DNA of 42,429 bases from the NCBI GenBank assembly GCA_040003795.1, contig JBDUBV010000003.1:1-42429 (forward strand), in the 5' to 3' direction. The stretch is from Pseudonocardiales bacterium (GTDB lineage: Bacteria > Actinomycetota > Actinomycetes > Mycobacteriales > QHCA01). This document shows, piece by piece, positions 9,334-14,541 of this stretch. The notes under the pieces were generated by a model, which was given only the letters and a program-made list of their open reading frames with translations, was not told the origin of the DNA and ran no database searches. The position numbers and the translations under genes are program-made. Every line of letters starts with the position of its first letter. Positions within the stretch are counted from its first letter, which is position 1.

Positions 9334-9360
9334 TTGTCCACAAGGCCGTGGTCGTCCACA
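9334..9360 (+). promoter_or_regulatory. two DnaA-box-like sequences in the recA upstream region
   Basis: TTGTCCACA (9334-9342, perfect actinobacterial box) and TCGTCCACA (9352-9360, one mismatch). Confidence 0.55.
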
Positions 9361-9383
9361 GCGGGGTAACGGGTCGGGCAGAT

Positions 9384-9405
9384 TGTCGGACCTGCCATCT
9401 AGCGT
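9384..9405 (+). promoter_or_regulatory. PafBC-dependent (RecA-NDp) proximal recA promoter
   Basis: TGTCGG-N10-TAGCGT, exact match to TGTCGG-N10-TA-N3-T. Confidence 0.85.
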
Positions 9406-9497
9406 CTGCCGTGACCGCACAACCGAGAAGAACCGACACTGCGAAAGCCCGAAGCAGAGACACCCGACGTCCCGACTCTCAAAGCAAGGTGGCAGGC

Positions 9498-11630
9498 ATG
9501 GCAGCACTGGACCGCGACAAGGCCCTCGACCTCGCGCTCGCCCAGATCGACAAGTCCTTCGGCCGCGGCTCGGTCATGCGGTTGGGCGACCGGCCGCAGA
9601 TCCCCGTCTCGGTGATCCCGACCGGCTCGATCGCCCTCGACGTGGCACTCGGAATCGGTGGCCTGCCCCGCGGCAGGGTCATCGAGATCTACGGTCCCGA
9701 GTCGTCCGGCAAGACCACGGTCGCACTGCACGCGGTTGCCAACGCACAGGCGGCCGGGGGCATCGCCGGCTTCATCGACGCCGAGCACGCACTCGATCCC
9801 GACTACGCCAAGGCCCTGGGCGTCGATACCGACGCCCTGTTGGTCTCCCAACCCGACACGGGCGAGCAGGCGCTGGAGATCACCGACATGCTGATCCGGT
9901 CGGGCGCGCTCGACATCGTCGTGATCGACTCCGTCGCGGCCCTCGTGCCCCGGGCGGAGATCGAGGGCGAGATGGGCGACAGCCACGTTGGGCTGCAGGC
10001 CCGCCTGATGAGCCAGGCGCTGCGCAAGATCACCGGCGCGATCAGCAACACCAACACGACCTGCATCTTCATCAACCAGTTGCGGGAAAAGATCGGCGTC
10101 TTCTTCGGCTGCCTGTCCTATGGCACCAAGGTCACCCTGGCTGACGGCACCCAGGAGAAGATCGGCAAGATCGTCAACCAGCGGCTTCCCGTCGAGGTGA
10201 TGTCCTACGACCCCGAGCTCGGCAGGATCGTGCCGAAGCGAGTGGTCAACTGGTTCGACAACGGCATCACCGATGAGTTCCTGCAGATCACTGTCGCGCG
10301 GCCCGGCGGCAACGGCAGGGCGCAGCTGGGTCTCACCAGCAACCATCAGGTGCGCACCCCGGGGGGCTGGCGAGAGGCGGGCGAGCTCATCGTCGGAGAT
10401 CGCGTCATGCTGTCGCAGCTTCATCGGCTGAGCCCCGTGCAATGGGAGATGGTTCTCGGCGGGCTGATGGGCGCTGCCGCGCTCTCGCCGAGCCGCCGTG
10501 AGGGCAGCCTCGGCACTCGGTTCCGGATGGGCCACGGTGTCCAGCGGGTGGACTATCTCGACTGGAAGGCGTCGATGTTCGCCAACATCGGCCAGACCCG
10601 CTCCTCCGATGACACCGGTGCGGCATTCGTCGATCTCACCCGGTTGCCCGAGCTGGCTGAGCTGCGGGAGGCGGTCTACCTCGGTGACGGCAAGAAGCAC
10701 CTGTCCTGGGACTACTTCAAGGCGCTGACCCCACTCGCCTTGGCCGTCTGGTACATGGACGACGCGTGCTTCACCCTCCGCTCCGAGGGACTGCAAGCAC
10801 GGACAGTGGGGGGCAGCGGCCGGGCCGAGGTGTGCGTCGACGCGATGAGCCCCGGGTCGCGGGATCGGCTCGTGCAGCATCTTCGCGACGCCTATGGGCT
10901 GACCTGCAAGCTGGTGGTCCGCGGCGCTGCGGCGCAACACCTCCTGCAGTTCACCACCGCGGCGACCGCACGGCTCCAGGAGCTCGTTGCGCCCTACGTG
11001 CACCCGTCGATGGACTACAAGCTGCTGCCCCGGTTCCGTGGGCGCTTCGCTGTCGAGCCGTCGTTCGTCGAGCCGACCCCGCTGCCGGTGCCGGCCAGAG
11101 TGATGGATGTGCGCGTCAAGCCGCCGACCCGGTCCATGCACCGGTTCGACCTCGAGGTGGAGGGCTCTCACAACTACCTCGCCGACGGCATCGTCGTGCA
11201 CAACAGCCCGGAGACGACGACCGGTGGCAAGGCGCTGAAGTTCTACGCCTCGGTGCGACTCGACGTGCGGCGTATCGAGACGCTCAAGGACGGCGGTGAG
11301 GCGGTGGGCAACCGCACCCGGGTCAAGGTCGTCAAGAACAAGATGTCCGCGCCGTTCAAGCAGGCCGAGTTCGACATCGTCTACGGGCAGGGGATCAGTC
11401 GTGAGGGTTCCCTGATAGACGTGGGGGTCGAGCAGGGTCTCGTCCGCAAGTCCGGTGCGTGGTTCACCTACGAGGGGGACCAGCTCGGCCAGGGCAAGGA
11501 GAACGCCCGGGCGTTCCTGCGCGACAATCCGGATCTGGCCAACGAGATCGAGAAGAAGATCAAGGAACGGCTGGGCATCGTGCCATCGCTCGACAACGAC
11601 GTGCCGGTGCCGCCCCCGGTCGACTTCTGA
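9498..11630 (+). CDS. recA: recombinase RecA precursor containing an intein (710 aa; about 345 aa after splicing)
   Basis: [38 protein letters not shown] and [20 protein letters not shown] motifs. Confidence 0.99.
10110..11204 (+). mobile_element. intein with LAGLIDADG-type endonuclease domain at the RecA G|S site (M. leprae-type site)
   Basis: VFFG|CLSYGT ... TSNHQV (block B) ... [12 protein letters not shown]|SPETT; 365 codons; internal VLGGLMGAA and LAVWYMDDA blocks. Confidence 0.95.
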
Positions 11631-11632
11631 CC

Positions 11633-12223
11633 ATGACCCGCCGCCGGCGCGCCGCCGATGAGGCCGACATGCAGGAGGTCGGCCTGCCGAATCCCGAGTC
11701 GGCGGCCTCGGCAGCCAGGGCCATCTGCCTGCGGCTGCTGACAGCCCGACCGCGCACGCGGTCCGAGCTTGCGACGGCGCTGCGCAAGAGCGGTGTCCCG
11801 GACGGCTGTGCCGACGCGGTCCTCACCCGGTTCGCCGAAGTGGGCCTGATCGACGACGAGGCGTTCGCGGCGGCGTGGGTGAGTTCGCGGCACGCCGGCC
11901 GCGGCCTCGCCCGGCGGGCGCTGGCCGACGAGCTGCGCAGCCGCGGTGTGGCACCGGCCGTGGTGTCGACCGCCCTCGACCAGGTGGACGGAGACACCGA
12001 GATGGCGACCGCCCGGCACTTGGTCGACCGCAAGATGGCCGGCCTGCACGGGGTGCCGGCGCACGCCTGCCGGCGCCGCCTTGTCGGCATGCTGGCCCGC
12101 AAGGGTTACCCCACGGGTTTGGCTATGCGCGTCGTCCGCGACGCCCTCGCCCAGTCAGTGGCGGCCGGCCGGGTTGACGGCGCCGGGGACGTCGACGAGA
12201 CCGACACTCTCGCTGATGTCTAG
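11633..12223 (+). CDS. recX: regulatory protein RecX
   Basis: LRLLTARPRTRSEL, GLIDDEAFA, ELRSRGV and LARKGY motifs; 2 nt after the recA stop. Confidence 0.95.
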   Translation: MTRRRRAADEADMQEVGLPNPESAASAARAICLRLLTARPRTRSELATALRKSGVPDGCADAVLTRFAEVGLIDDEAFAAAWVSSRHAGRGLARRALADELRSRGVAPAVVSTALDQVDGDTEMATARHLVDRKMAGLHGVPAHACRRRLVGMLARKGYPTGLAMRVVRDALAQSVAAGRVDGAGDVDETDTLADV

Positions 12224-12499
12224 GCGCTGCTGAACAAGGGTTGGTGGTGGCGGGGCGCACCAGCGCTCAGAGCGCGAGATAGGTCAGACCCGAGGGTCGA
12301 CAACGGTGCCGCCCCGCCGACGCAGAGTTTGCAGTGCCCCGCTGGTTCCGTCAAGGCTCGGTCGCCACTGTCACTGGCTCCTAGGTGCGTGCCATGGCCC
12401 TTTGCCGCTGGTCCTCATGGGAGGACTCACGCACGCCGTTGCCGGACCACGATGTGCGTTCATCACCCGCTCGTCCTGACTCCCACAGCGGCGCCGCGC

Positions 12500-12528
12500 T
12501 TGACCCTCCACGGATGCCGTCATAACCT
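12500..12528 (+). promoter_or_regulatory. sigma70-type promoter upstream of the rny leader
   Basis: TTGACC-N17-TAACCT. Confidence 0.75.
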
Positions 12529-12534
12529 CGAATT

Positions 12535-12798
12535 ACTGAGGAGTAAAGCCCGCGACGGAGCGGGACGACATAGATCACATACGACAAAGCGCACCACCCG
12601 ACACTCGAACAGGCACCATCGCTCCCTGCAACATCACCAATCAGGCAGCCCGCCTGCCGCCCTTTCCCCCGGGTCTTCCGACGACCCGGCGCATCTGCCC
12701 CCCGGGGTTGCACTGTCGTCTTCGGGCTCTCCTCATGCGTAGCTCCGCGGCGCGCTCGGCCAACCTGGCGTGGCTGCGGCGACATGTGAGGAGGAGCC
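12535..12798 (+). ncRNA. candidate structured RNA (rny 5' leader or independent sRNA)
   Basis: Nested long-range pairings TGAGGAG/CTCCTCA, AGCCCG/CGGGCT, GACGACA/TGTCGTC and TGCAAC/GTTGCA, two internal hairpins, and an alternative anti-SD pairing; identified by eye. Confidence 0.55.
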
Positions 12799-14541
12799 GT
12801 GATTGCTCAGATCGGGTCCGTCGATCTCTTCCTGGGCCTGCTCGTCGCCATCGCCGTGCCACTGGCCGCTGCGCTCGGAGCCGCGCTCGTGATACGCCGG
12901 GTCCGAGTGCGCGAGGACCGTCCCGCCGAGCAGGCTGCCCCGCAGCCCCGGTTCGGGCCTGCCCCGCAGCCCCGGCTCGGGCCCGCCGATGAGCAAGTGG
13001 CCGGCGATGAGCAGGCGCTCGGGGCCGCCCGGCGCGACGCCGACGAGGTGGCCTCCGCCGCCCGGATGGAGGCACAGCGCCTCGAGGCACAGGCGCGCCA
13101 GGCCGCTGACGACATCGCCAGCGAGGCGCGCCGGCGCGCCGCCGATCTGGTCGAGAACGCCCGGCGCGACACTGAGCTCGCCGCCTCAAACTCCTTGCTC
13201 GAGGCACGCCGGCAGCACGAGCGCGAGACGGTCGAGGTGCGCGCCGATCTCGAGCGCCGCGATCACCGGCTGGCCGAGCGGGAGGAACGTCTCGACGCCG
13301 ACGTCAGCCGGATGGCGGCCCGCGACGCGGAGCTCACAGAGGTGGAGCACGCACTGGGCCGCCGCCAGGCCGAGCTCGGGCAGCTCGAGGACGAGCGGCG
13401 CCAGGAGCTCGAGCGGATTGCCGGGCTGTCCGCTGAGACGGCTCGCGCCGAGCTGGTGCGGGCTATAGAGACGGCGGCCAAGCGCGAGGCTGCCCTCCTG
13501 GTGCGTGACATCGAGGCGGACGCCCGCGAGACCGGTGAGAACCGGGCCCGCCACATCGTCGTCGACGCGATCCAGCGGGTCGCCAGCGAGCAAACCGCCG
13601 AGAGCGTGGTCAGCGTCCTGCACCTGCCCAGCGACGACATGAAGGGCCGCATCATCGGCCGTGAGGGGCGCAACATCCGCTCCTTCGAGCAGGTCACCGG
13701 CGTCAACCTGATCATCGATGACACTCCCGAGGCGGTCCTCCTCTCCTGCTTCGACCCGGTACGCCGTGAGGTCGGCCGGATCACCCTGGAGAAGCTGGTC
13801 CTCGACGGCCGGATCCATCCGCACCGGATCGAGGAGGTCCACGAACGCAGCAAGGAGGAAGTGGAGGCATTGTGCCTGCGGGCCGGCGAGGATGCCTTGG
13901 TCGAGGTCGGGGTCACCGACCTGCACCCCGAGCTGCTCGGCCACCTCGGTCACCTGAGGTACCGAACCTCGTACGGCCAGAACGTTCTCAAGCACCTCAT
14001 CGAGACCGCGCACATCGCCGGGCTGATGGCCGCCGAGCTGCGCATGAATCCCGCCGTCGTCAAGCGCGCCGCGTTCCTGCACGACGTCGGCAAGGCCCTG
14101 ACGCATGAGGCAGAGGGCAGCCACGCCCTGGTGGGTGCCGAGCTGGCGCGGCGCTGCGGCGAGAGCGAGGAAGTCGTGCACGCCATCGAGGCGCACCACA
14201 ACGAAGTGGCCCCGCAGACCATCGAGGCGGTGCTGACGCAGGCTGCTGACTCCTGCTCGGGCGGCCGTCCAGGTGCGCGTCGGGAGAGCCTGGAGACCTA
14301 TGTCAAGCGGCTGGAACGGATCGAGGAGATCGCGGGCAACAAGCCCGGTGTCGACCGGGTCTTCGCGATGCAGGCTGGTCGCGAGGTCCGGGTCATGGTG
14401 CTGCCCGACTCCGTCGACGACCTCGCGGCGCAGGTCCTCGCCCGCGACGTCGCCAAGCAGATCGAGGAGGAGCTGACCTATCCCGGCCAGATCCGGGTGA
14501 CGGTGGTGCGAGAGACCCGGGCGACCGAGGTCGCGCGGTAG
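12799..14541 (+). CDS. rny: ribonuclease Y
   Basis: N-terminal TM helix, coiled coil, KH domain (MKGRIIGREGRNIR), RTSYGQN, HD motif LHDVGK, AMQAGRE, LTYPGQI; SD GAGGAGG. Confidence 0.97.
   Translation: MIAQIGSVDLFLGLLVAIAVPLAAALGAALVIRRVRVREDRPAEQAAPQPRFGPAPQPRLGPADEQVAGDEQALGAARRDADEVASAARMEAQRLEAQARQAADDIASEARRRAADLVENARRDTELAASNSLLEARRQHERETVEVRADLERRDHRLAEREERLDADVSRMAARDAELTEVEHALGRRQAELGQLEDERRQELERIAGLSAETARAELVRAIETAAKREAALLVRDIEADARETGENRARHIVVDAIQRVASEQTAESVVSVLHLPSDDMKGRIIGREGRNIRSFEQVTGVNLIIDDTPEAVLLSCFDPVRREVGRITLEKLVLDGRIHPHRIEEVHERSKEEVEALCLRAGEDALVEVGVTDLHPELLGHLGHLRYRTSYGQNVLKHLIETAHIAGLMAAELRMNPAVVKRAAFLHDVGKALTHEAEGSHALVGAELARRCGESEEVVHAIEAHHNEVAPQTIEAVLTQAADSCSGGRPGARRESLETYVKRLERIEEIAGNKPGVDRVFAMQAGREVRVMVLPDSVDDLAAQVLARDVAKQIEEELTYPGQIRVTVVRETRATEVAR
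12937..12984 (+). repeat. 24-bp in-frame tandem duplication in rny (APQPRFGP/APQPRLGP)
   Basis: gccccgcagccccggttcgggcct followed by gccccgcagccccggctcgggccc, 22/24 identical. Confidence 0.85.

Follow-up and report, generated by a model that had tools for sequence, protein, structure and literature searches.

The rny locus and its leader

The 42,429-nucleotide (nt) stretch analysed here, hereafter the window, covers positions 1 to 42,429 of contig JBDUBV010000003.1 from a Pseudonocardiales bacterium (assembly GCA_040003795.1) and carries the gene for RNase Y, rny (12799..14541), which begins with a GTG codon at 12799 and whose 580-amino-acid product contains the Pfam domains RNase_Y_N, KH_1 and HD. 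On its 5' side rny is adjoined by recX (11459..12223; Pfam RecX_HTH1/2/3), and a promoter and a long leader, the subject of this report, lie between the two; all features described below are on the plus strand. As judged from sequence comparison, the segment 12500-12801 is the window's copy of a leader that is conserved 5' of rny across the class Actinomycetes. This leader probably controls the amount of RNase Y that is made, as a switch of translation and mRNA stability that is probably under feedback from RNase Y.

The promoter can be read directly as a -35 hexamer TTGACC (12500..12505), unchanged in all five sequences available for the genus, and, after a 17-nt spacer, a -10 hexamer TAACCT (12523..12528), which is TAGCCT in most relatives and which we take to fit the actinobacterial consensus TANNNT. 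Promoter hexamers at this fixed spacing stand 5' of rny in 64 of 110 loci when searched with a loose regular expression, and the full pattern has one occurrence in the window's own genome, in agreement with the TTGACC-N17-TAACCT promoter that an initial annotation of the sequence had assigned. A transcription start predicted near 12535 from these hexamers would give rny an untranslated leader of about 264 nt (12535..12798); leaders in relatives span 177-847 nt. One Streptomyces sp. locus (L036, ~2293-2371) has the same promoter about 18 nt past the recX stop and a leader of just ~41-45 nt, the 5' GUGAGG of which is able, by eye, to pair locally with a nearby CCUCGC as a 5'-terminal hairpin; this short leader may represent the long-range helix described below in collapsed form. 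Single-base insertions and deletions in the genus alignment argue that the leader is not coding sequence, and stop-free frames are uninformative at its G+C content.

At the predicted 5' end lies element A, a UGAGGAG (12537..12543) that resembles a Shine-Dalgarno (SD) sequence, as its counterparts do across lineages, and that would form the 5' strand of a long-range helix, P1. It stands in the context UGAGGAG-UAA-AGCCCG (12537-12552). Directly 3' of element A is hairpin P2 (12549..12564), a CCCGC and a GCGGG around a 6-nt loop, which is present in the minimum free energy (MFE) fold. Comparable CCCGC...GCGGG-type hairpins were seen by eye in several families; because RNAalifold returned zero consensus pairs on the unstructured alignment of the 5' module, P2 is placed from single folds and inspection. 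Next come a conserved ACAUAGAUC motif (12568..12576), a candidate endonuclease site with G|A in an A/U-rich context, and an A/C-rich, G-poor tract (12575..12654; 35 C, 24 A and 13 G of 80) that is weakly paired in the fold containing P1. Across 56 leaders the first ~80 nt are A-rich (24-32% versus 11-16% elsewhere). A reading of the C-rich tract as a Rho-utilisation site is not favoured, the bias of C over G being strong in the window and only mild across the same leaders.

Element B, the anti-SD GGCUCUCCUCAUG (DNA GGCTCTCCTCATG; 12725..12737), is located about 60 nt before the start codon. It is followed by an inner hairpin (12743..12781), found by RNAalifold on the 3' module of the genus, and by element C (12785..12801), which comprises the SD region UGUGAGGAGGAGCC (DNA TGTGAGGAGGAGCC; 12785-12798) and the GTG and was identified by reading and from the fold. 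The initial annotation had given 12725-12737 two mutually exclusive partners, and all of the motifs and pairings are indeed found at their assigned positions: nucleotides 12729-12735 (CUCCUCA) pair either with A or with the SD and are common to both helices. The helix between B and C, described there as 11 Watson-Crick and two G-U pairs with one bulge, has exactly this composition, a G being the bulged nucleotide, and appears in the MFE fold of 12535-12830, where its 13 pairs between 12725-12737 and 12785-12798 have probabilities of 0.5-1.0. Two extensions had been proposed for the competing fold, GACGACA (12564-12570) with TGTCGTC (12714-12720) and TGCAAC (12627-12632) with GTTGCA (12707-12712). 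Both complementarities are present in the window, but inspection of four genus relatives by eye indicates that their sequence is not conserved.

Conservation and lineage-specific pairing

Orthologues of rny were identified in 32 of 41 related genomes; recX lies on the 5' side in 27 of 30 related loci, the recX-rny spacer is long in every case, and the genus relatives have the same rny start position as the window. All five genus sequences retain the -35 and -10 hexamers, UACUGAGGAG, the CCCGC/GCGGG hairpin, CAUAGA, GGGCUCUCCUCAYGC and the SD, and the middle of their leaders is marked by many single-base insertions and deletions. This set includes L005, from the unpublished genome G005, which contributes one of the 59 sequences to the statistics below and on which alone no conclusion hinges. 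Beyond the genus, in whose members element B is kept, its CUCCUC block aligns across families. The same leader layout is found in other families of the order and, in genomes located via the protein, in Micromonosporaceae, Frankiaceae, Streptosporangiaceae and a metagenome-assembled genome of Nocardioidaceae, as well as in Kribbella, Jiangella, Acidothermaceae, Allonocardiopsis and one Streptomyces.

Searching with an nhmmer profile built from the 5' module gave matches at 69 of the 110 loci, once each and always 5' of rny on the rny strand; the profile had been seeded with 60 of the matched sequences, and just ten extra matches are independent. It matched no outgroup locus from Coriobacteriia, Acidimicrobiia or Clostridia, including the clostridial loci L088 and L099. 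In 35 of 60 leaders, many of them from related Micromonosporaceae, the pentamer ATAGA, mostly inside ACAUAGAUC, is found between +25 and +110 (median +43); it has two occurrences in 13,186 nt further downstream. When 34 whole leaders were aligned with MAFFT, the anti-SD block fell out of register and the middle, which differs in length and sequence between families, was not alignable between them. The conserved parts of the leader are its two ends and one short linear motif.

Loci of the Micromonospora type (L016, L047, L048, L055, L056, L057 and L049) differ in appearance. By eye, they carry an upstream open reading frame (uORF) of 12-18 codons with a strong SD just 5' of rny, and its stop codon overlaps the rny start as ATGA or GTGA, an arrangement suggestive of translational coupling. 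The SD-like 5' element is absent from these lineages, and their SD at rny itself is weak.

The complementarity between A and B was assessed by comparing the duplex energies of a species' own partners with those of partners taken from two species in different clusters, for 59 leaders in 35 clusters and with start codons that were partly curated by hand. Element A, taken as the first 26 nt, paired with the B region (-110..-24) at -23.44 kcal/mol within species and -20.22 kcal/mol across (mean percentile 0.213, p = 3.9e-6). A wider B window gave a mean percentile of 0.217 (p = 1.9e-6), and an anti-SD window set by sequence alignment alone gave -20.93 within species versus -16.2 kcal/mol across (percentile 0.252, p = 3.2e-5). 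The controls separated own from foreign partners far less: with A reversed, the values were -20.73 versus -20.24 kcal/mol (percentile 0.42, p = 0.037), and with coding region in place of B they were -21.95 versus -21.37 kcal/mol (percentile 0.47, p = 0.29). The signal resides in the 27 clusters whose element A is SD-like, where the percentile is 0.18.

We replicated this result with an automated pipeline free of hand-curated start codons, in which 80 metagenome loci yielded 19 with the 5' module, 12 that were usable and 11 that were tested. All 11 independent loci fell at an own-species percentile of 0.21 or below (p = 0.0005), and the subset with a novel element A (n = 8) gave p = 0.004. Differences between lineages in A are compensated in B in L025, L032, L073, L094 and L007; examples are the duplexes of CAGGAAAGC with GCUUUCCUG in L025 and of GCAGCGAGG with CCUCGCUGC in L073, and a 12-base-pair (bp) UUGAGGGAUCAC helix in L032. 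P1 duplexes are irregular, with ~17-25 bp and energies of -20 to -38 kcal/mol. Collectively, the sequences compared indicate that all elements of the leader are conserved and that A:B complementarity is lineage-specific, above the controls and replicated, in keeping with the initial annotation, which named the 5' end as one of the two partners of the anti-SD.

Predicted folding and proposed control of rny

The consensus fold of the 3' module in the genus, as calculated by RNAalifold, has 28 pairs and includes the B:C helix. At seven of these, pairing is preserved although both partners have changed; six belong to the inner hairpin, and the seventh change is apparent only, produced by a displaced L004 row in the alignment. 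In the full-length MFE fold, 33 of 52 leaders have the SD core paired to the B window. The modelled B:C helix thus draws its support from the shared CCUCC:GGAGG core and from folding rather than from covariation.

When 12535-12780 is folded alone, as it would be before the SD is transcribed, P1 (UGAGGAG with CUCCUCA) is the MFE structure. For the full-length window leader the MFE structure, at -112.2 kcal/mol, is the fold with the SD paired (OFF), compared with -106.4 kcal/mol when P1 is forced (ON). Across the 52 leaders, at least five A:B pairs are found in 40 nascent MFE folds and in 15 full-length ones. A leader's own A forms such A:B pairs more often than a swapped A does (cluster-weighted 0.89 versus 0.61, p = 4e-4). 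Of the 36 leaders in which both helices occur, 20 have at least four nucleotides that take part in both, a descriptive count made without a null model. The two alternative folds put forward in the initial annotation are thus predicted to alternate, both in the window and across the 52 leaders, and in these models the helices are mutually exclusive and flip between the nascent and the full-length state.

From these observations we propose that A, B and C form a three-element leader in which A:B keeps the ribosome-binding site (RBS) open, loss of A lets B close the SD, and a cut by RNase Y is the likeliest trigger; we give this scheme about an even chance of being correct. During transcription A and B would pair first, forming P1, which would close the leader, bury its 5' end and hold B off the SD, such that new rny mRNA would be translatable. 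If A were lost or displaced, B would pair with the SD as far as the start codon, giving the thermodynamically favoured OFF fold. The likeliest trigger would be endonucleolytic cleavage within the A-rich tract of weak structure 3' of A, ACAUAGAUC included, and the likeliest enzyme RNase Y itself; such cleavage would feed back negatively on the synthesis of RNase Y and would expose a 5' end for exonucleolytic decay. We infer the ON/OFF output, the trigger and the identity of the trigger. By analogy, RNase Y feedback would be the most economical trigger. In Bacillus subtilis, G|A with U at -2/-3 is described, in an excerpt of PMC11780869, as over-represented at RNase Y sites, which lie in A/U-rich RNA of weak structure ahead of a more strongly structured part, and the ACAUAGAUC-type motif fits this weak preference well enough to be a candidate site. 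A more specific scheme, which we offer only tentatively, is a homeostat of the RNA-decay machinery shared across Actinomycetes: the mRNA would be born ON through co-transcriptional capture of the anti-SD by the 5'-terminal SD mimic, RNase Y unoccupied by other substrates would cut at the conserved ACAUAG|AUC within the unstructured tract, the anti-SD would clamp the SD and a 5' exonuclease would enter. A single cut would then both switch translation off and start decay, a mechanism distinct from that in Bacillus.

A number of results weigh against this proposal. The predicted 5' end is derived from the promoter only, and a scan for promoters and terminators, which used an E. coli-type consensus, returned zero sites. 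The MFE of 12535-12830 has a z-score of -0.25, with 74 of 200 shuffles as good; taken as a single sequence the feature is indistinguishable from chance, and the evidence past chance is comparative. The clusters in that comparison reflect sequence similarity, not a tree, and the p-values are approximate. An A:B signal is lacking in the five clusters whose A does not resemble an SD, among them the Micromonospora type (percentile 0.44), and a swapped or reversed A still pairs with B in 62-67% of cases, a high baseline because the core is shared. Some expectations of the initial annotation also lacked support here or came out weaker. It held that the intact leader keeps the RBS open, but at equilibrium the P1 pair probabilities of the full-length window leader are 0 and the leader is predicted to be fully OFF; the ON state, if real, must therefore be kinetic and would need trapping. 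Comparing folds with and without the 5' end did not reveal the expected dependence, in that in-silico removal of 40 nt caused no significant drop in SD accessibility (0.289 versus 0.261, p = 0.10). Covariation of the B:C helix is weak: own-versus-cross tests gave p = 0.0013 and 0.018, reversed-C controls gave p = 0.07 and 0.19 with similar energy shifts, and lineage-specific complementarity barely exceeds the composition control. Element A, described as a near-copy of the RBS, has no lineage-specific likeness to C past the shared SD core (mean percentile 0.47, p = 0.26). Lastly, nothing ties the trigger to RNase Y over another nuclease or factor.

Several other explanations account for part of these data. 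In the STAB-SD stabilisers of Bacillus mRNAs, an SD-like sequence near the mRNA 5' end binds the 30S ribosomal subunit, a concept that is reportedly due to Agaisse and Lereclus. The rny leader could likewise be a 5' stabiliser and nothing more, with A binding 30S without translation, or P1 burying the 5' end, such that the mRNA is shielded from 5'-end-dependent decay by RNase J or RNase E and the anti-SD:SD pairing is incidental. Element A begins 8-11 nt past the -10 hexamer and is therefore right at the predicted 5' end. Scored against what we take to be the 16S rRNA 3' tail motif, it averages -7.6 kcal/mol versus -5.0 kcal/mol for mid-leader windows (p = 2e-5), and 20 of 35 clusters reach -8 kcal/mol or below compared with 16% of 727 control windows. 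A start codon (ATG, GTG or TTG) follows 3-11 nt 3' of an SD-like A in just 7 of 37 leaders, none of them in the window's genus, leaving 30 without one. The weak B:C covariation and the local 5' hairpin of L036 also suit a stabiliser. However, the sequences flanking A show lineage-specific complementarity to B, which binding to an invariant 16S tail would not demand, and an A engaged in P1 is not free for 30S; in the folds, A is held in P1 in 40 of 52 nascent leaders but is mostly unpaired with B at full length (15 of 52 paired). A mere helix partner would have no need of CUCCUC unless complementarity to the SD matters, and the SD core is itself predicted to pair with B in most full-length leaders. 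We consider a pure stabiliser unlikely, though worth serious consideration.

Slightly less probable still, in our view, is that the architecture is as proposed and the trigger a different one, namely cleavage of the P1 duplex by RNase III, or cutting of the single-stranded tract by RNase E or J or the binding of a protein to it, such that the leader couples rny to other decay machinery or to ribosome availability rather than to RNase Y. The length and the energies of the P1 duplexes are compatible with this, since long-range intramolecular helices are listed as B. subtilis RNase III targets in an excerpt of PMC11780869, and actinomycetes have RNase E, RNase III and RNase J too, according to a part of PMC3848588. 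On the other side, the sole experimental precedent for an rny leader in the portion of PMC10303841 drawn on here is self-cleavage by RNase Y, and the conserved G|A in the A/U-rich motif fits the weak preference of that enzyme.

It is improbable that the region is simply a conserved promoter followed by a GC-rich leader without a switch, the pairings being by-products of high G+C and of SD-like and anti-SD-like words. The fold energy is equal to that of shuffles, and duplexes of -20 kcal/mol do occur between unrelated leaders, but the own-versus-cross tests with their composition-preserving controls and the replication speak otherwise, as do motif positions that are conserved across orders. We judge a ligand-sensing riboswitch, in which a metabolite bound in the middle of the leader would shift the balance between A:B and B:C, to be very unlikely. 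A long leader with alternative helices would suit one, but the middle is variable between families, with no conserved junction, pocket or aptamer core seen, and conservation is confined to the parts named above. Rfam 15 gave only a chance snoTBR5 match of 15 bits for window positions 11800-13200 at E up to 10, and no match for twelve related loci at gathering thresholds, consistent with the initial annotation, which recognised no named family in the leader. Finally, element A as the RBS of a short leader peptide that controls rny was rejected and has next to no probability, for despite its SD-like sequence start codons behind it are few, the resulting frames are inconsistent in length (1-49 codons), and the Micromonospora-type uORF adjoins the rny start, not A.

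Neighbouring features and relation to known systems

Upstream of recX, an intein that contains a LAGLIDADG endonuclease domain splits recA (window 9348-11630; Pfam RecA, LAGLIDADG_2, Intein_splicing and RecA_C). The recX reading frame as listed, from GTG 11459, overlaps the end of recA by ~170 nt, and the true recX start may therefore be further downstream. A 276-nt spacer (12224-12499) separates the recX stop from the rny promoter. It is missing in the genus relative L002, whose spacer begins at the promoter, and a repeated element was ruled out, as the spacer is single-copy in its own genome. Within it, an imperfect 13-bp inverted repeat (~12249-12261 / 12305-12318), seen by eye, is possibly the recX terminator. 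In RNase Y itself, the stretch that links the membrane helix to the conserved core is of low complexity and very variable in length (L007-L030, L018), with Ala/Gly/Pro/Thr repeats and open frames of up to ~1,070 amino acids in L018.

RNase Y is a central, decay-initiating nuclease that is almost unstudied in Actinomycetes; a review of Streptomyces RNases names it only in a reference title, and our full-text literature search found no paper on an actinomycete rny leader. Conservation of the leader from Frankiaceae and Micromonosporaceae to Streptosporangiaceae, relatives of Nocardioidaceae and Streptomyces suggests tight post-transcriptional control of the amount of this enzyme, and the leader supplies mutable elements (A, B, C and the ACAUAGAUC motif) with which dose control can be tested.

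Among known systems, the 5' untranslated region (UTR) of E. coli rne, an element that we take to be the Rfam family rne5, and the leaders of other nuclease genes (pnp, rnc) are alike in being conserved, structured leaders through which a ribonuclease controls its own mRNA. They differ in that the E. coli case concerns another enzyme in another phylum, and its stem-loop is sensed by RNase E according to an excerpt of PMC10303841.

The same excerpt (Korobeinikova et al. 2023, PMC10303841) provides a parallel at the same gene in B. subtilis, where RNase Y regulates its own expression by cutting the A/U-rich portion near the 5' end of a 160-nt rny leader and where a strong RBS can be buried in structure. 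Control there is by destabilisation: RNase Y cuts within the first 50 nt and in the reading frame, RNase J1 enters, and an initiating ribosome blocks it. Full-length B. subtilis rny mRNA also co-purifies with RNA polymerase, with ~64-fold enrichment in RNA immunoprecipitation sequencing, from which the authors suggest a link between transcription and the decay machinery (PMC11077062, in part). The two leaders share the gene, their length, an A-rich 5' part that contains a stem-loop, a strong SD open to masking by structure and the logic of nuclease feedback; the long 5' UTR with an A-rich 5'-proximal part is present here, as a predicted 264 nt in the window and as A-richness in 56 leaders. The actinomycete leader is longer and GC-rich, and, comparing by description, the relevant portion of PMC10303841 describes neither a 5' SD mimic nor anti-SD competition.

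In its architecture the rny leader resembles the SD/anti-SD/anti-anti-SD switches of riboswitch expression platforms and attenuators, in which exclusive helices form and an upstream strand sequesters the sequence that masks the SD. Three hallmarks of such a switch were seen, namely an anti-SD complementary to the SD and start, a conserved alternative partner and nucleotides common to both helices. It departs from such switches in that the role of anti-anti-SD falls to the very 5' terminus, which lies over 180 nt away and is SD-like itself, with no aptamer or leader peptide evident. With STAB-SD it has in common an SD-like element close to the 5' terminus that no start codon follows; STAB-SD, however, binds 30S, whereas element A is lineage-specifically complementary to an internal anti-SD. 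In hok mRNA refolding and in the phage MS2 maturation gene, long-distance 5'/3' pairing decides, by kinetics or trimming, whether the RBS opens. There too the state of the RBS is set by a long-distance interaction that is formed or lost, but their pairing closes the RBS, whereas that of rny is predicted to keep it open. The leader is therefore of known kinds, a nuclease leader and an SD-masking switch, and the leader family and its 5' SD-mimic geometry appear to be undescribed. If correct, our proposal would add a new class of cis-regulatory RNA for GC-rich bacteria and would exemplify an SD mimic at the 5' terminus that serves as an anti-anti-SD across ~200 nt.

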